Source: Oscillospiraceae bacterium
GTDB taxonomy: Bacteria > Bacillota > Clostridia > Oscillospirales > Ruminococcaceae
Direction of reading: 5' to 3'
Assembly (NCBI GenBank): GCA_025758045.1
Contig: CP107208.1
Location: 753,298-817,297 of the forward strand
Length of the DNA stretch: 64,000 nt
Shown here: piece by piece, positions 6,251 through 63,855 of the stretch
How positions within the stretch are numbered: the first letter of the stretch is position 1
How the letters are laid out: every line of letters begins with the position of its first letter
Made by a program: the position numbers and the translations under genes
Notes under the pieces: model-generated
Told to the model about the DNA's origin: nothing
Seen by the model: the letters and a program-made list of their open reading frames with translations, nothing else
Database searches by the model: none

Positions 6251-6290
6251 GGTCGATACCCCACGGGCCGATGCAAGCAGCGGCCCCTAC
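6251..6290. repeat. REP-like GC palindrome ending in CCCCTAC
   Basis: GGGCCGATGC AA GCAGCGGCCC hairpin followed by CTAC. It is related to the units at 47100-47152, 54949-54978 and 58947-59000. Confidence 0.45.
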
Positions 6291-6300
6291 AAAGCATAAC

Positions 6301-6331: not shown

Positions 6332-6370
6332 ATTAAAGTTTCTTTGGTTCTTTCTTTTCAAAGAAAGAAC
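6332..6370 (-). repeat. Post-stop hairpin module, copy 1 (after leuS)
   Basis: Stem GTTCTTTCT / AGAAAGAAC plus the tail CAAAGAAACTTTAAT, read on the minus strand. It starts 6 nt after the leuS stop. Confidence 0.5.
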
Positions 6371-6376
6371 AGAGTC

Positions 6377-26777: not shown

Positions 26778-28535
26778 TTACATCGTTTCCGGCACGCTGA
26801 CTTTGAACATGGTCAGGATGTTGCGGATGACGCCGCGCACGGCGAGACACAGGGCAATGCGGCCCTGCTGGACAGCACCCTCGGTGCCCATGATGCGGCA
26901 GGCGTTATAGAAGCGGTGGTAAGCCGAGGCCACATCGATGCAGTAGCGGGTGATGCGGGCGGGGTCGTACTTATCGGCCGCGGCCACGATCTCTGCCGGG
27001 AAGGCGGCCAGCAGGCGGATCAGGGCCTGCTCGGCGGGGTCGGTCAGCACGGAGGCATCAACACCGTCCACGCCGTTGAAGGTGATGCCCTCGCTCTCCA
27101 GCTTTTTCAGCACGGAGCAGATGCGGGCGTGGGCATACTGCACATAGTAGACGGGGTTTTCACTGTCGTTGCGCACGGCCAGGTCGAGGTCAAAGTCCAG
27201 GGTGGAGGAGCTTTCGCGCTGATTGAAGAAGAAACGGGCGGAATCGATAGGCACCTCGTCCAGCAGGTCGGTCAGGGTGATGGCCTTGCCGGTACGCTTG
27301 CTCATACGCACGGGCTTGCCGTCGCGCATCAGGTTGACCATCTGCATCAGCACGATGTCCAGGCGATTGCCGTCCAGGCCGATGGCATCCATAGCACCCT
27401 TCATGCGAGCCACGTGGCCGTGGTGGTCGGCGCCCCAGACGTCGATGGCCTTGTCAAAGCCGCGGACGGCCAGCTTATTATAATGGTAGGCGATGTCGGC
27501 GGCGAAGTAGGTGGGGATGCCGTTGGCACGGACGAGGACCTCGTCCTTAGCCTCTTCCTCGCTGCCGTCGTCAGCCTTTTTCTTGTTGACGACGCCGTAC
27601 TTGGCGGCGTACTGGGCGCTGCGGTACATGATAGCGCCGTCCTCGGCCTTGTAGCAGGCACCGATCTCCAGCAGCTTATCCACAACCGCCTGGACCGCAC
27701 CGGACTTGTGCAGGTCGCTCTCGTGGAACCAGACATCATAATCGATACGATACTTGCCCAGGTCGCGCTGCAGGCCGGCAATGTTCTTGGGCAGGGCGTC
27801 GGCAATGAGAGCCTCTTTCAGCTCCTCGAAGTCGGCATTGACATAGCTGTCGCCATGGACCTCAGCAAACTCCTTGGCGCGCTGAATGATGTCAGCGCCC
27901 TGGTAGCACTCCTCGGGCAGCGGGCAGGCTTCCTCGCCCTTGTACAGCTGCAGGTAGCGGATGGCCAGGCTCTTGCCGAACTTCTGGATCTGGTTGCCGG
28001 CGTCGTTGATATAGAACTCGCGGGTGACATCGCAGCCGGCCCAATCCAGGCAGGCGGCCAGACCGTCACCCAGGGCACCGCCGCGGGCGTTACCCATGTG
28101 CATGGGGCCGGTGGGGTTGGCGGAAACGAACTCCACGTTATACTTTTTGCCGGCACCGGCGTCGGTGCGGCCGTATTCCGGGTTGGCGCAGGCGGCGCGG
28201 ACAACGCTGGTGAACCAATCCTGACCCAGGAACAGGTTGATGAAGCCGGGGCCTGCAATGTCCACGCCGGAGAACAGCGTGCCGTTCAGGTCCAGCTTGG
28301 CGGTGATGGCCTCAGCGATCTGGCGGGGTGCCTTATGGAAAGCACGGGCACCGGCCATGGCAATGTTGGATGCTACGTCACCGTTTTTGACATCCGCCGG
28401 GATCTCGACGATGAAATCGGGCAGTTCTGCGGCGGGCAGGGCGCCATCGGCCACGGCGGCCTTGGCGGCATCGGTCAGCAGGGCGCGGGCTTCGGTCAGC
28501 GCGGCCTGGCGGGGGTTGTAGTTTTTATAGTCCAT
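26778..28535 (-). CDS. argS: Arginine--tRNA ligase
   Basis: 585 aa. HIGH-type motif SANPTGPMHMGNARG and the class I anticodon-binding C-terminus. Confidence 0.95.
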   Translation of the reverse strand: MDYKNYNPRQAALTEARALLTDAAKAAVADGALPAAELPDFIVEIPADVKNGDVASNIAMAGARAFHKAPRQIAEAITAKLDLNGTLFSGVDIAGPGFINLFLGQDWFTSVVRAACANPEYGRTDAGAGKKYNVEFVSANPTGPMHMGNARGGALGDGLAACLDWAGCDVTREFYINDAGNQIQKFGKSLAIRYLQLYKGEEACPLPEECYQGADIIQRAKEFAEVHGDSYVNADFEELKEALIADALPKNIAGLQRDLGKYRIDYDVWFHESDLHKSGAVQAVVDKLLEIGACYKAEDGAIMYRSAQYAAKYGVVNKKKADDGSEEEAKDEVLVRANGIPTYFAADIAYHYNKLAVRGFDKAIDVWGADHHGHVARMKGAMDAIGLDGNRLDIVLMQMVNLMRDGKPVRMSKRTGKAITLTDLLDEVPIDSARFFFNQRESSSTLDFDLDLAVRNDSENPVYYVQYAHARICSVLKKLESEGITFNGVDGVDASVLTDPAEQALIRLLAAFPAEIVAAADKYDPARITRYCIDVASAYHRFYNACRIMGTEGAVQQGRIALCLAVRGVIRNILTMFKVSVPETM

Positions 28536-28571
28536 AGGTTACCTCCTGTGGGAGTTTTGCTTTTGTACGAC

Positions 28572-28751
28572 TTAGGGCAGCACCGCACAATTCCCGCCTT
28601 ACGGCTTAAGCACCGCTCCGGCGGCTGCGGCACGGCAACTGCGTTGCCAAAATGCTCGATAATACACAAAGTATTATCTGCGCTTTTGGCTTAGCAGCTG
28701 CCGCACCTCGCTCGCCGTATCGGCACTTAGAATTATGCGGTATTGCCTTAG
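28572..28751 (-). mobile_element. MITE-like hairpin element, copy A (172-nt core 28576-28747, TSD TTAG/TTAG)
   Basis: Near-identical to copies D and E in reverse orientation. It has the terminal inverted repeats and is flanked by TTAG at 28572-28575 and 28748-28751. Confidence 0.75.
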
Positions 28752-29194
28752 TTTTCGGCGTTTTTGGGCAGGGCTTCCACCGTGATGTCCACGAGGTTGC
28801 GGCTGATGAAATTCTCGGCGCCGGAATCCAGCGTATAGCTGAATTTCAGCTTGCCACCCTCCTCGGTCAGTTCATGCTCGATGACATCGGCGGCGACGCC
28901 CAGGCTGATGGCACCGTAGCCGGTCTCGTAATGGCAGAGATGGCGGGTGCCTTTCTCAATGATAAGCTGGCTGGGCACCTTGCCGTAACGCAGCATTGAT
29001 ACTTTACGGGCATCTTCGGCCACCTTGACGGTGGTGGTGCATCCTTCGTAGCCGGTGGCTTCGGTTTCTTTATAAACGATATAATAGGCACCCTCTTTGT
29101 GGACGAGTGAGCCGCGGGTCATCAGTTCGACGGTGTCGCTGTCGCCGCGCTGCTCCATGGTGCCTTTGATGGTGATGAGAAAATTTTCCTGCAT
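28748..29194 (-). CDS. DUF1934 (YwiB-like) beta-barrel protein
   Basis: 148 aa. The pattern ITIKGTMEQ..VELMTRG..YIVYKE..ML is typical of DUF1934, which commonly precedes argS in Firmicutes. Confidence 0.8.
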   Translation of the reverse strand: MQENFLITIKGTMEQRGDSDTVELMTRGSLVHKEGAYYIVYKETEATGYEGCTTTVKVAEDARKVSMLRYGKVPSQLIIEKGTRHLCHYETGYGAISLGVAADVIEHELTEEGGKLKFSYTLDSGAENFISRNLVDITVEALPKNAEN

Positions 29195-29235
29195 GGTTTT
29201 TCCTTATACAAATATAAGTTTGTGCTTAAGGGTAG

Positions 29236-29345
29236 GCTCTCTCCCCTACCCGCTTCGCGGGGCCGCTTACGCGGCCGGACCCCTCTGTCGCTACGCGACG
29301 TCTCCCCACGCTGTGGGGAGTCACCCTCCCAGAGGGGGCCTTTTG
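29236..29345. repeat. Tandem array of five short GC-rich hairpins
   Basis: CCCGC-TTC-GCGGG, GCCGC-TTAC-GCGGC, GTCGC-TAC-GCGAC, CTCCCCAC-GCT-GTGGGGAG and CCCTC-CCA-GAGGG in series. Confidence 0.5.
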
Positions 29346-29360
29346 GCAGAAGATGCTTAT

Positions 29361-29716
29361 TTAGGGCAATACCGCATAATTCTAAGTGCCGATACGGCGA
29401 GCGAGGTGCGGCAGATGCTAAGCCAAAAGCGCAGATAATACTTTGTGCTGCAAAGGTGAGCGCCGCCAGTGGCGGATACAGCGAACCGAAGCAGGGGCAG
29501 CGGTCGCAGAGTGCGAGGGGCTTTTGTCCCCGAAGCACGATGCGGGTACCGCAACCCGACATTATCGAGCATTTTGGCAACGCAGATGCCGTGCCGCACA
29601 CCGAGCCGCAGCGAGGCGCTTCGGAGCGCAACCGCCGCTTGCGGCGGCTCTTGGCGCGGAGATCCGCCGGAGCGGTGCTTAAGCCGTTAGGCGGGAATTG
29701 TGCGGTGTTGCCTTAG
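29361..29716 (+). mobile_element. MITE-like element, copy B, long variant (348-nt core 29365-29712, TSD TTAG/TTAG)
   Basis: Same termini as the 172-nt copies. It has an insert of about 113 nt in the apical loop and an insert of about 66 nt in the 3' arm. It is flanked by TTAG at 29361-29364 and 29713-29716. Confidence 0.75.
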
Positions 29717-30528
29717 TAAGTTTCAATCGCGATCTGCTCAACAGGGCCGCCGGCGTATTCGCCTAGGAAGCGATGTTCCAGTTCGTCGAAGTTATCCGGC
29801 GTGTCGCTGACGTAGTAATGGGCGTTGCCGCCCTCGGTGCGGCCGTTCAGCAGGCCCAGATCCGCCAGCGCCGCCGCGGCCGCCTGGGCCGTGACCTTTC
29901 CGGAATCGATCAGGGTGACATCGCTGCCCATGAAATCGCCGATCATCTTTTTCAACAGCGGATAGTGGGTGCAGCCCAGGATCAGGGTGTCGACCCCGGC
30001 ATCCTTTACCTCCTGCAGATACTCGGCGATGATGAGCTTGGTGACGGGGTTGCCGTCGTTCACATAGCCGTTTTCCACCAGCGGCACGAACATGGGGCAG
30101 GCGCGGGCGACGATCTCCGTCTCCGGCTTCATGTCCTTGATGACCGCCGCGTAGGAACCGCTGCGCACCGTGGCCGCCGTGCCGATGATGCCCACCTTGC
30201 CGTTGCGGGTGGCATCCACCGCCGCACGGGCCGTAGCACCCACCACGCCGGTAAAAGGCACCGGCAGACGGGCGGCTTCCTCGGGCGGGTAGGTGGAGGA
30301 CACTGTGCCGCAGGCAGCAATAATGAACTTTACATCGTGGGAAAGCAGAAAGCGGATGTCCTGCCGGGCATACTGGCGGATGATCTCCCGCCCGCGGGAG
30401 CCGTAGGGCACGCGGCCGGTATCACCAAAATAAATGATGTCCTCGCCGGGCAGCACGCGGCGCAGCTGGCGCACGGCGGTCAAGCCGCCCAGACCGCTGT
30501 CAAACACTCCGATAGGGCGGGTGTCCAT
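29713..30528 (-). CDS. murI: Glutamate racemase
   Basis: MDTRPIGVFDSGLGGLT start plus the ACGT and GCTHYP motifs. I trimmed the start to the ATG at 30526-30528, which overlaps the ddl stop. Confidence 0.9.
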   Translation of the reverse strand: MDTRPIGVFDSGLGGLTAVRQLRRVLPGEDIIYFGDTGRVPYGSRGREIIRQYARQDIRFLLSHDVKFIIAACGTVSSTYPPEEAARLPVPFTGVVGATARAAVDATRNGKVGIIGTAATVRSGSYAAVIKDMKPETEIVARACPMFVPLVENGYVNDGNPVTKLIIAEYLQEVKDAGVDTLILGCTHYPLLKKMIGDFMGSDVTLIDSGKVTAQAAAAALADLGLLNGRTEGGNAHYYVSDTPDNFDELEHRFLGEYAGGPVEQIAIETY

Positions 30529-36248: not shown

Positions 36249-36540
36249 TTGAGGCAATACCGCGCAATTTTAAGTGCCGATACGGCGAGCGAGGTGCGGC
36301 GGCTGCTAAGCAAAAAGCGCAGATAATACTTTGTGCTGCAAAGGTGAGCGCCGCCGGTGGCGGATACAGCGAACCGAAGCAGGGGCAGCGGTCGCAGAGT
36401 GCGAGGGGCTTTTGTCCCCGAAGCACGATGCGGGTACCGCAACCCGACATTCTCGAGCATTTTTGCAACGCAGACGGTGCGCCGCAGCCGCTGGAGCGGT
36501 GCTTAAGCCGTCAGGCGGAAATTGTGCGGTGTTGCCTCGG
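36249..36540 (+). mobile_element. MITE-like element, copy C, intermediate variant (284-nt core 36253-36536)
   Basis: It has the apical-loop insert but not the 3'-arm insert. It is more diverged than the others, and its flanking 4-mers (TTGA/TCGG) do not match. Confidence 0.7.
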
Positions 36541-37857: not shown

Positions 37858-37890
37858 GAAAGAGGAACCTTTCAGCAGGCTCCTCTTTTG
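37858..37890 (-). terminator. Terminator downstream of pentapeptide-repeat gene
   Basis: AGAGGAACC / GGCTCCTCT stem with a U-rich tail on the minus strand. Confidence 0.5.
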
Positions 37891-40742: not shown

Positions 40743-40764
40743 GCTATCCCCTGCCCGCAAACAG

Positions 40765-40797
40765 AAAGAGGAGCCTGACAGCAGGCTCCTCTTTTTT
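40765..40797. terminator. Bidirectional terminator between rbr and the ABC permease gene
   Basis: GAGGAGCCTG-ACAG-CAGGCTCCTC flanked by AAA and TTTTTT. Confidence 0.75.
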
Positions 40798-46900: not shown

Positions 46901-47002
46901 GCAGCAGTGGGATGCGGGACCCGCACCGCAGGCCGCTTTGGCCTTTCGTCCTGCCACAACTCCCCGTTGGTCAGGCACTTTACGCGCGTGTCCCTACTCT
47001 GC
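46901..47002 (-). promoter_or_regulatory. THF (tetrahydrofolate) riboswitch
   Basis: The minus strand reads GCAGAGUAG..GCGUAAAGUG..GGGGA..ACGAAAG..GCGGUG..GCAUCC..CUGC, matching the conserved THF-I core and P1. Downstream lie a GGTGTGC/GCACACC hairpin and an RBS-sequestering helix (GCCTCCTTGC/GCAAGGAGG). Confidence 0.85.
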
Positions 47003-47026
47003 GAAAAAATATTGGGTTACAAGCCT

Positions 47027-47099: not shown

Positions 47100-47152
47100 G
47101 TAGGGGAGCATTCTATATGCTCCCGCGGGCGGATGCAAGCATCCGCCCCTAC
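47100..47152. repeat. REPIN-like inverted doublet (GTAGGGG...CCCCTAC)
   Basis: GTAGGGGAGCATTCTATATGCTCCC followed by GGGCGGATGCAAGCATCCGCCCCTAC. Further CCCTAC fragments flank it (47091-47187). Confidence 0.55.
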
Positions 47153-47193
47153 GCATTCCCCATAGGTTCGCATTGCTCGCCCCTACCCTTTCT

Positions 47194-48826: not shown

Positions 48827-49120
48827 TAAAAAAAGACAGCCCATTCGCCCTGCATTAGGACGAATCGCTGTCTTGGATCCGCGGTGCCACCTAAATTACC
48901 GCAGCCGAAATAATGGCATACGGTCACTTTTTCCGTACACGTTCACCTTTGAAACGCTGCCGCTGTAACGCACGGCCTGCGGCATCCCCTACTCCTCTGC
49001 GGTTTCAGTTTGCAGCTGTCAGGTGTTCTTTCGCGCCCCGTCCCCGTCCCGGCTTACACCAGATGTCGGGCTCTCTGTGCGGATGTTGGGCGGTACTTTT
49101 CCCGGTCATCGCTTTTATCA
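48827..49120 (-). promoter_or_regulatory. T-box leader (probable Asn specifier) upstream of asnB
   Basis: The minus strand has AGAGAG and GGUGUAA stem I motifs and the T-box sequence AAUUUAGGUGGCACCGCGG (48879-48897). A terminator, AAGACAGC...GCTGTCTTTTTTT, follows at 48827-48874. The candidate specifier is AAC-A at 49025-49027. Confidence 0.8.
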
Positions 49121-51883: not shown

Positions 51884-52063
51884 CTAGGGCAATACCGCAT
51901 AATTCTAAGTGCCGATACGGCGAGCGAGGTGCGGCAGCTGCTAAGCCAAAAGCGCAGATAATACTTTGTGTATTATCGAGCATTTTGGCAACGCAGATGC
52001 CGTGCCGCAGCCGCCGGAGCGGTGCTTAAGCCGTCAGGCGGGAATTGTGCGGTGTTGCTCTAG
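51884..52063 (+). mobile_element. MITE-like hairpin element, copy D (172-nt core 51888-52059, TSD CTAG/CTAG)
   Basis: It has the terminal inverted repeats and the rod-like fold. It is flanked by CTAG at 51884-51887 and 52060-52063. Confidence 0.8.
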
Positions 52064-54915: not shown

Positions 54916-54948
54916 TTAACGAAAAACAAATTGTGTGGATACCGTTTT

Positions 54949-54978
54949 GTAGGGGCGGATACAAGCATCGACCCCTAC
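54949..54978. repeat. REP-like palindrome GTAGGGGCGGATAC-AA-GCATCGACCCCTAC
   Basis: A single hairpin whose two arms match the outer halves of the doublet at 58947-59000. Confidence 0.5.
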
Positions 54979-55006
54979 GGATTGGTGGAAGATTTCAACC
55001 TTTTTG

Positions 55007-57323: not shown

Positions 57324-57600
57324 AAAAAACAGCCTTTGCCTCTTTCGTTCAAAGAGACAAAGGCTGTGAATCAGCTCTCTGCGGTACCACTCTTTTTGGA
57401 GCGCCTGCTCCCACCTCATGGGCTTCCAACAAAGCCCGGCACTGTAACGGGTGCGCCCGTATCCCCCTAATAGGTTTCGTTCGGGTGATCTGCTCCGGGA
57501 TCAGTTCGCAGCTCGTTTCTCCTTCTGCCTTGCACCGACCGGCAGTTCTCTGCAGGGAACGTGACTGTTACTAACTTCCCATCCAAGCATTTAGATTTGT
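57324..57600 (-). promoter_or_regulatory. T-box leader (probable Leu specifier) upstream of ilvBNCD
   Basis: The minus strand has AGAGAA and GGUGCAA stem I motifs and the T-box sequence AAAAAGAGUGGUACCGCAG (57379-57397). A strong terminator, ACAGCCTTTGTCTCTTT...AAAGAGGCAAAGGCTGTTTTTT, follows at 57324-57366. The candidate specifier is CUG-A at 57502-57504. Confidence 0.8.
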
Positions 57601-58946: not shown

Positions 58947-59000
58947 GTAGGAGCGGATGCTTGCATCCGCCCGTGGGTCGATGCAAGCATCGACCCCTAC
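58947..59000. repeat. REPIN-like inverted doublet
   Basis: GTAGGAGCGGATGCTTGCATCCGCCC followed by GTGGGTCGATGCAAGCATCGACCCCTAC. The two units are inverted copies of each other. Confidence 0.6.
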
Positions 59001-59015
59001 ATATTTACCTGCACA

Positions 59016-62290: not shown

Positions 62291-62331
62291 CTTACTTTCT
62301 TTGAAAAGAAAGTAAGCAAAGAAACTTTAAT
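62291..62331 (+). repeat. Post-stop hairpin module, copy 3 (after kduD)
   Basis: Stem CTTACTTTCTT / AAGAAAGTAAG plus the tail CAAAGAAACTTTAAT. It starts 6 nt after the stop. Confidence 0.5.
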
Positions 62332-62511
62332 ATAGGGCAATACTGCATAATTCTAAGTGCCGATACGGCGAGCGAGGTGCGGCAGCTGCTAAGCCAAAAG
62401 CGCAGATAATACTTTGTGTATTATCGAGCATTTTGGCAACGCAGATGCCGTGCCGCAGCCGCCGGAGCGGTGCTTAAGCCGTTAGGCGGGAATTGTGCGG
62501 TGTTGCCATAG
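62332..62511 (+). mobile_element. MITE-like hairpin element, copy E (172-nt core 62336-62507, TSD ATAG/ATAG)
   Basis: Nearly identical to copy D. It is flanked by ATAG at 62332-62335 and 62508-62511. Confidence 0.8.
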
Positions 62512-63627: not shown

Positions 63628-63807
63628 TTAAGGCAACACCGCACAATTCCCGCTTTACAGCTTAAGCACCGCTGCTACGGCTGCGAAGCACAATCTGCGT
63701 TGCAAAAATGCTCGATAATACACAAAGTATTATCTGCGCTTTTTGCTTAGCAGCTTGTACTTCTCGCTCGCCGCATCGGCACTTAGAATTATGCGGTGTT
63801 GCCTTAA
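63628..63807 (-). mobile_element. MITE-like hairpin element, copy F (172-nt core 63632-63803, TSD TTAA/TTAA)
   Basis: A diverged copy in reverse orientation. It is flanked by TTAA at 63628-63631 and 63804-63807. The arms carry paired compensatory substitutions. Confidence 0.75.
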
Positions 63808-63842
63808 AAGTTTCTTCGGTTTCTTCTTTTCAAAGAAGGAAC
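63805..63842 (-). repeat. Post-stop hairpin module, copy 4 (after uxaA-like gene)
   Basis: Stem GTTCCTTCTT / AAGAAGAAAC on the minus strand, plus the tail CGAAGAAACTTTTAA. Confidence 0.5.
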
Positions 63843-63855
63843 ATAACCCCCGTAA

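Follow-up and report, generated by a model that had tools for sequence, protein, structure and literature searches.

Among the repeats compared with it, the element described here has its closest precedent in bcr1, a transcribed mobile repeat of about 155 bp from the Bacillus cereus group in which compensatory changes maintain a structure at the RNA level (Okstad 2004 and Klevan 2007, as reviewed in PMC3184786). Our element lies at positions 63628-63807 of a 64,000-nt stretch of an Oscillospiraceae genome (contig CP107208.1, positions 753,298 to 817,297; hereafter the window). Like bcr1, it is a non-coding mobile repeat of a Firmicute, bordered by short direct repeats at non-conserved sites and carrying compensatory changes (PMC3184786). 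It has no sequence similarity to bcr1, however, and whereas bcr1 makes 5-bp duplications, adopts a cruciform-like fold with two stem-loops and is transcribed (PMC3184786), the present element makes 4-bp duplications of the type T/C-T-A-A/G, forms a continuous rod with a side hairpin, has had its helices fully resequenced over about 13 subfamilies, and is known here from its sequence alone. Structure-conserving mobile repeats are known in a few bacteria, and this conservation is not described before for this element: we found no description of this 172-nt Gemmiger/Faecalibacterium family in the literature, and a large survey of MITEs (miniature transposable elements with inverted repeats) mentions MITEs common to Gemmiger and phage contigs without a structural analysis (PMC11602168). 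We propose, with a probability of roughly 55%, that the element is a non-autonomous MITE mobilised by an IS5-type transposase, whose rod fold on one strand is selected as a single-stranded form, likely RNA.

Several other bacterial repeats share part of this architecture. The ERIC/IRU and YPAL repeats of enterobacteria are intergenic, whole-length imperfect palindromes of 127-170 bp with TA duplications, argued to form RNA hairpins with an orientation-dependent effect on mRNA stability. Our element resembles them as an intergenic palindrome imperfect over its whole length, but it belongs to another phylum and shows no enrichment in the transcribed sense, and we know of no relation of ERIC/IRU or YPAL to IS5-type targets. 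The Correia/NEMIS elements of Neisseria and the RUP elements of pneumococcus are abundant intergenic MITEs with terminal inverted repeats (TIRs), TA target-site duplications (TSDs) and transcripts that fold into hairpins, those of Correia being processed by RNase III. Only their terminal repeats pair, and they carry IHF sites or promoters, unlike the present element, which forms a single rod over all of its 172 nt and inside which scans of three window copies (D, E and F) gave no promoter-like site. REPINs and REP (repetitive extragenic palindromic) sequences with RAYT transposases are short mobile hairpin repeats whose hairpin is thought to be recognised as single-stranded DNA (ssDNA) and kept by selection; they lack TIRs and TSDs and depend on a Y1 (IS200-like) enzyme. 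An origin of our element as a REP/REPIN-RAYT or IS200/IS605-derived palindrome was rejected, since it has TIRs and 4-bp TSDs. Many MITEs are palindromic over their whole length although their transposases need just the ends, and the reason for this is unsettled. With about 13 subfamilies that share the same 172-nt geometry, resequenced helices and a constant polarity, the present family is an unusually clean natural experiment on this question, and it lives in abundant, cultivable bacteria of the human gut.

The stretch 63628-63807 consists of a 172-nt element (copy F, the last of six copies, A to F, in the window) and two flanking TTAA target duplications. We call the well-folding strand of the element, as written in copies D and E, the D/E strand; in copy F it is the minus strand, which scores 189.9 bits against the covariance model of the family, compared with 43.1 bits for the plus strand. 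The parts of copy F are as follows.

63628-63631, no strand: TSD TTAA, low-coordinate side
63632-63803, minus: copy F, 172 nt, well-folding (D/E) strand, subfamily 3
63804-63807, no strand: TSD TTAA, high-coordinate side
63786-63803, minus: 5' terminal inverted repeat on the well-folding strand, GGCAACACCGCATAATTC, forming helix 1 with the 3' repeat
63632-63649, minus: 3' terminal inverted repeat on the well-folding strand, GAATTGTGCGGTGTTGCC
63751-63764, minus: middle helix, 5' half, GAAGTACAAGCTGC, with five double substitutions relative to copies A, B, D and E
63685-63698, minus: middle helix, 3' half, GCAGATTGTGCTTC
63715-63735, minus: apical stem-loop, GATAATAC-TTTGT-GTATTATC
63652-63661, minus: side hairpin, in the 3' arm only, GCTGTAAAGC (GCCGTCAGGC in copy D)

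Every copy in the window folds as one rod, in agreement with the original prediction of a single long imperfect hairpin, the folding energy being -103 kcal/mol in copy D (z = -9.7 versus shuffles) and -98.6 kcal/mol in copy F (z = -10.9). The middle helix reads GGTGCGGCAGCTGC/GCAGATGCCGTGCC in copy D and GAAGTACAAGCTGC/GCAGATTGTGCTTC in copy F, and the paired segments and five double changes on both arms that the prediction had quoted for these copies are all present as listed, together with the change from CCAAAA/TTTTGG to CAAAAA/TTTTTG in copies C and F and a change from A-U to G-C in copy C. Across the subfamilies the middle and apical helices have no sequence in common, while the total length of the element and the positions of the internal loops are kept; the apical stem, for instance, is compensated as GCGAATAC/GTATTCGC, GGGAATAC/GTATTCCC or GCCAATCC/GGATTGGC in other subfamilies. 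The side hairpin is confined to the 3' arm and gives the element an intrinsic polarity. It is kept in most subfamilies, a few lacking it or having it relocated, and its middle pair covaries from C-G to G-C (pair 147-154: CG 76, GC 14). Conservation is highest in the terminal repeats and is also strong in the apical region.

Compensatory changes maintain these helices across subfamilies. In a first alignment (A1), comprising 103 copies aligned by MAFFT without structure, 97.4% of the cells were paired and 25 of the 67 pairs had changed on both sides, compared with a shuffle mean of 7.6 (0/500 shuffles); when the 3' partners were slid as a control, pairing fell from 97% to 31-48%. Alignment A3 (118 sequences, aligned with a covariance model) gave 97.0% of cells paired and 33/67 pairs changed on both sides (shuffle mean 14.3, 0/500). 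The 41 diverse copies of alignment A6, drawn from at least 11 divergent subfamilies and likewise aligned with a covariance model, gave 93% of cells paired, 49/67 pairs changed on both sides and a covariation score of 0.49 versus 0.165 (0/500 shuffles). The middle helix (helix 4) had changed on both sides at 12 of its 13 pairs in A1 and at all 13 in both A3 and A6, and helix 2 at 8/8 pairs in A6. RNAalifold recovered the same rod independently from A6, with 44/60 pairs compensated. This covariation, seen over many aligned copies, is strong enough for a curated annotation model.

The fold belongs to one of the two strands. In 6/6 window copies the D/E strand is favoured over its complement by 17-29 kcal/mol of folding energy (-103 versus -79.5 kcal/mol in copy D with RNA parameters), so that the asymmetry noticed in the original prediction is borne out by the energies of both strands, and it recurs in divergent subfamilies: among subfamily and cluster representatives one strand is better by 10-47 kcal/mol in 12/13, and by 3 kcal/mol in the degraded thirteenth. 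In 9/9 clusters that have a side hairpin, the better-folding strand is the one carrying it in the 3' arm. Standard pairs occupy 97.0% of cells on the D/E strand of A3 versus 87.8% on the complement (683 G.U against 54 A.C), and 93.0% versus 85.3% in A6. The wobbles that had first drawn attention, two GUGC/GUGC tandems and two positions in the terminal repeats, are present, and the main-family consensus holds 7 G.U and 0 A.C positions; the corresponding numbers are 7 and 1 in the consensus of subfamily 2, 6 and 0 in subfamily 3, 3 and 1 in subfamily 4, and 6 and 1 in subfamily 5, with wobble positions that often differ between subfamilies. Both tandem wobbles of the main family are of the form 5'-UG-3'/3'-GU-5', a stable RNA motif. 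When each strand is given its own best fold, inner-helix G.U pairs number 56 versus 18 over 12 clusters; the subfamily-4 helix has 3 G.U and 0 A.C, and the variant in locus L317 has 13 versus 0. This L317 variant (L317:4563-4724) and another in L357 (L357:897-1058), both of 162 nt, have the apical core inverted relative to the TIR-proximal hairpin, and in them the polarity of the wobbles goes with the core (-103 versus -56 kcal/mol).

The same bias is seen in the pattern of change. G.U and A.C state types stand at 44:19, and parsimony on a neighbour-joining tree counts 66 changes from a Watson-Crick pair to G.U versus 27 to A.C, the poor resolution of the tree raising the number of shared variants scored as recurrent. 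In unpaired columns the mutation classes are balanced, with 30 events of C>T plus A>G and 29 of G>A plus T>C, and the unpaired bases of the well-folding strand comprise A 204, G 149, U 86 and C 62, with A exceeding U and G exceeding C in 13/13 clusters, although loop energies grant purine mismatches a small bonus. A G+T skew of the stems would not yield loops rich in A+G, and both controls speak against a mutational origin. The polarity also recurs in subfamilies without common helix sequence, and is thus maintained rather than inherited. Strand-specific pairing and the conserved fold together argue for selection on a single-stranded form, RNA being more likely than ssDNA; the idea of one-strand selection on the fold is therefore supported both by covariation on large and diverse alignments and by the polarity controls. 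Three other procedures were rejected: orienting divergent copies by the position of their A-run or T-run, a position that is itself palindromic and hence uninformative; strand-neutral folding of purine/pyrimidine-collapsed sequence, which gave many spurious pairs and misfolded the main family; and palindrome self-alignment, which was too crude around bulges.

Matched arms might also arise with no selection on structure, by hairpin-templated repair, by gene conversion between the arms, or by an independent fold-back duplication of a transposon end in each subfamily. Such an origin would account for the replacement of whole helices on both arms together between subfamilies, and for transversion double changes (G-C to C-G, A-U to C-G), which need either a mismatched intermediate or one-step templating. 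Templating erases imperfections, yet bulges, internal loops, wobbles and the one-armed side hairpin persist in most subfamilies, which argues against intra-palindrome gene conversion, at least in its simple form, a process that the original prediction had itself named as a threat; moreover, newly sequenced helices regain wobbles on the same strand, and the neutral expectation of G.U:A.C is 1:1, compared with the observed 683:54 cells, 44:19 state types and 66:27 events. We consider this origin very unlikely.

A further explanation would place the constraint in double-stranded DNA, the two arms carrying the same series of sites bound by the transposase or by a protein of the host, co-evolving and merely looking like a hairpin. 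The conservation of the terminal repeats and of the apical region would fit such sites, as would the derived variants of the terminal-repeat helix, which show no bias (12 G.U versus 8 A.C types). In the inner helices, by contrast, derived variants favour G.U over A.C by 25 versus 10 types and 92 versus 15 cells, and the polarity signal thus lies there. Binding sites in duplex DNA should have no strand polarity, so that neither the G.U/A.C bias nor the purine-rich unpaired bases of one strand are predicted, and neither is the free resequencing of helices of 13-16 bp in which complementarity alone is kept. This makes the double-stranded account highly improbable.

The mobility of the element is evident from its copies. 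These were gathered by three scans (an exact-word scan of one genome per species, a scan of viral contigs for the terminal repeats, and a scan of metagenomes for a non-main right end), and the numbers of copies and sites are lower bounds. Hundreds of copies were retrieved, at no fewer than 148 distinct insertion sites, from Gemmiger, Subdoligranulum, Faecalibacterium, 'Cibiobacter' and human-gut samples and metagenomes. About 13 subfamilies were recognised, with a length of 172 nt (161-162 nt in a few), and size variants of 60-408 nt exist besides the 172-nt form. The TIRs are 18 nt long, essentially all copies ending in GGCAAYACCGCAYAATTC and GAATTRTGCGGTRTTGCC, and the terminal sequence of the element ends is GGCAAYACCGCA. 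A perfect 4-bp TSD is found at 77/105 distinct sites, involving 21 different tetranucleotides, and the target composition over the 105 sites (T 70% with C 19%, T 79%, A 70%, A+G 91%) gives the consensus T/C-T-A-A/G. By its small size, lack of coding capacity, TIRs and fixed-length TSDs at unrelated sites, the element is a MITE.

Elements of the IS5 group make 4-bp duplications at YTAR-type targets, and the 4-bp TSD and T/C-T-A-A/G target of our element thus indicate an IS5-type DDE transposase. Genuine IS5-family elements of the same communities resemble it in their CTAA, ATAA or TTAA duplications and in ends that start with GG; unlike it, they are autonomous insertion sequences with a DDE_Tnp_1 and DUF772 transposase, and their arms do not form a whole-length palindrome. 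One of about 1.2 kb (L289:404-1612) sits with a CTAA duplication inside a subfamily-4 MITE copy that lacks its left end. It encodes a DDE_Tnp_1 and DUF772 transposase that is IS1021-like and annotated as 'IS5 family transposase' (family confirmed by Pfam and record annotation), has the ends GGAACCTCTGATTTAAT, and belongs to an insertion sequence family also present at L379:716-1786 and in L365-L369. S. variabile holds a defective IS5-family copy with an internal deletion and an ATAA duplication. The end GGAAACACTGATTAAATC of one IS5-family clade, met in viral contigs (L366), is identical to the MITE end at 12/18 positions, a weak likeness, and the nearest IS5-family elements have ends identical at 10-12 of 17-18 positions; judged by these end sequences, none is close enough to be named as the putative parent. 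Other candidates for that role were discarded as well. TIR pairs 700-3500 bp apart in all loci were neighbouring MITE copies, a screen for multi-copy open reading frames (ORFs) gave a phage-like locus and not a transposase, and metagenome matches lacking the left end led to the IS5-family element inserted in a copy, the ends of which differ. Protein-guided scans of viral contigs and plasmids for a parent returned the IS5-family clade only.

In our proposal, copy F would be a non-autonomous DNA transposon that an IS5-type DDE transposase moves in gut bacteria of the Oscillospiraceae, and selection would act on a single-stranded form of its well-folding strand, most simply a transcript that folds into an imperfect double-stranded rod of about 80 bp. 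Such an RNA might control the partner transposase, be processed by a double-strand RNase, or protect the element. Selection would fall mainly on multiplying lineages, that is, on source copies, rather than on each inserted copy within host mRNA, because the preference for G.U over A.C is strong in shared variants and weak in singletons, and because the strand co-transcribed with neighbouring genes is not preferentially the well-folding one.

A number of findings weigh against this proposal. The covariance model fitted A3 and A6 to the structure, and the clusters share common ancestry and are not fully independent. Paired and unpaired columns have a similar density of change (about 2.05 and 2.3 events per column, respectively). 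Singleton variants show a G.U:A.C ratio of 19:11, which is not significant; the bias is therefore strongest among variants found in several insertions, i.e. in active source copies. Among the 148 sites, with genes called by a simple codon-usage gene caller, tandem gene contexts have the well-folding strand in sense in 28 cases and in antisense in 44 (p = 0.08), the corresponding numbers being 17 and 34 where both neighbours lie within 300 nt. Scans around copies D, E and F detected no sigma-70-like promoter or intrinsic terminator inside the element. An autonomous parent, with matching ends enclosing a transposase, was not found in 2.75 Mb of loci. Finally, the strand asymmetry of copy D is also obtained with DNA parameters (-60 versus -46.6 kcal/mol), and G.T is the least destabilising mismatch in DNA as well.

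The last two points would be expected if the selected form were a DNA hairpin on one strand, arising for instance at the replication fork or during mobilisation, which brings the ends of the element into contact and is needed for its transposition or survival. The apparent action of selection on proliferating lineages rather than host transcripts would also fit, and the paired terminal repeats form a duplex that mimics one transposon end. The TIRs and 4-bp duplications indicate an IS5-type DDE transposase, however, and to our knowledge no single-stranded intermediate is known in IS5-type DDE transposition; A-rich unpaired purines and UG/GU tandem wobbles typify structured RNA, whereas DNA offers no evident reason for them; and both orientations of the element occur with respect to genes and, with genes as a proxy, to replication. 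We regard a DNA hairpin as a serious alternative, though an unlikely one, and RNA is favoured over ssDNA.

The gene contexts bear on another possibility, that the element is a cis-acting RNA exapted by the host (an mRNA stabiliser, an attenuator or an RNase target) and selected at each insertion site within neighbouring transcripts. Besides the tandem contexts, 27 sites are convergent and 26 divergent. Copies lie in short intergenic regions, often abutting stop codons, and six Faecalibacterium species keep one insertion at a shared site, flanked on one side by a divergently transcribed gene and on the other by a strong tRNA promoter, upstream of which it lies (L052:6187-6358, L116:200-371, L092:6927-7098, L018:49-220, L022:240-411 and L041:4409-4580), as might be expected of a recruited element. 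Yet this retained copy diverges about as much as its intergenic flank, the sense orientation is not enriched, the bias among singletons is weak, and a terminator-like tail was absent from the scanned copies. In the terminal stem of the six orthologues, a path from A-U through G.U to G-C can be followed, together with one A.C intermediate. The gene contexts do not support a role of the well-folding orientation in co-transcribed host mRNA, and counter-selection may lie behind the antisense trend, acting on insertions that would put a near-perfect RNA duplex of 80 bp into an mRNA. Host exaptation is on these grounds doubtful at best.

Our proposal could be taken one step further. The rod might be a mobile gene for a structured RNA, either its transcript of one strand or a one-strand DNA hairpin being obligatory for the element's own propagation, for instance by regulating the IS5-type transposase responsible for its movement or by recruiting this enzyme. 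A role in propagation would explain why selection follows multiplying lineages and not host transcripts and, if true, would mean that the life cycle of a derivative of a DDE transposon includes a step dependent on RNA or on a hairpin. We mention this extension as a long shot.

The other five copies in the window, two of which are long forms, are the following.

28576-28747, minus: copy A, 172 nt, TSD TTAG, flanked by a DUF1934 gene and argS, which are likewise on the minus strand
29365-29712, plus: copy B, 348-nt long form, TSD TTAG, the apical loop bearing a 113-nt insert (29448-29560) and the 3' arm a 67-nt module (29598-29664)
36253-36536, plus: copy C, 284-nt long form, with a 113-nt apical insert (36336-36448)
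51888-52059, plus: copy D, 172 nt, TSD CTAG
62336-62507, plus: copy E, 172 nt, TSD ATAG

Copies A and F are inverted relative to copies B-E. Copy C is flanked by TTGA and TCGG, an imperfect duplication, and copy D is identical to the family consensus at 171/172 positions (last base T for C). The neighbours of copy F, both on the minus strand, are an altronate/galactarate-dehydratase gene, which turns its 3' end towards the element, and an aldose-1-epimerase gene; the ORFs that overlap copy F do not exceed 56 aa. A composite transposon formed by copies A and B was rejected, each having its own TTAG duplication, as were a retron, a CRISPR array and a 6S-like RNA, for which there were no supporting neighbours or model match. 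At the gathering score, no Rfam 15 family matched any element copy in the whole window, and permissive E-values gave chance-level matches only (E = 2.9-4.8) for copies A and B (28500-29800). Above the gathering threshold, the window has two T-box leaders (48853-49118 and 57350-57594, both minus) and a tetrahydrofolate (THF) riboswitch (46903-47003, minus).

The 113-nt apical module is GC-rich, 97-100% conserved, and also present at about 20 further loci (among them L046:2393-2505 and L106:2865-2977), being met solely inside the element; long forms of 394 and 408 nt occur in L042 and L043. Metagenome and 'viral' contigs very often start or stop inside the element, at many loci (for example L002, L009, L023, L123, L131, L245 and L271). 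The element is an assembly breakpoint, and its occurrence in 'viral' contigs need not mean carriage by phages. An ORF of about 1100 aa without a Pfam match lies about 370 nt from the MITE copy at which IMG/VR contigs end (L123:440-3727, L132:466-3756, L159:450-3851 and about 17 more IMG/VR contigs), beside genes for peptidase M23 and GH25 lysin-like proteins.

A hairpin repeat of 37 nt, AAAGTTTCTTYGGTT..TTTCAAAGAARGAACA, is found in the window at 6335-6371 (plus), 63807-63843 (plus) and 62302-62331 (minus), and at L038:6308-6338. It abuts the 5' end of the well-folding strand in copies E and F and in one copy of L038, each of these insertions having a different duplication, and it may mark a hot spot at which the element inserts in one fixed orientation relative to the repeat (3/3). 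An unoccupied TTAA at 6333-6336, beside the repeat copy at 6335, is only suggestive of an empty site. A second small palindromic, REP-like repeat (GGGGCGGATGCTTGCATCCGCCC-like) occurs at four intergenic positions (6255-6295, 47117-47157, 54943-54983 and 58947-59005), and a terminator-like hairpin, GAAAGAGGAGCCTG.CAGCAGGCTCCTCTTTT, is present twice with 91% identity, at 37858-37889 and 40764-40795.

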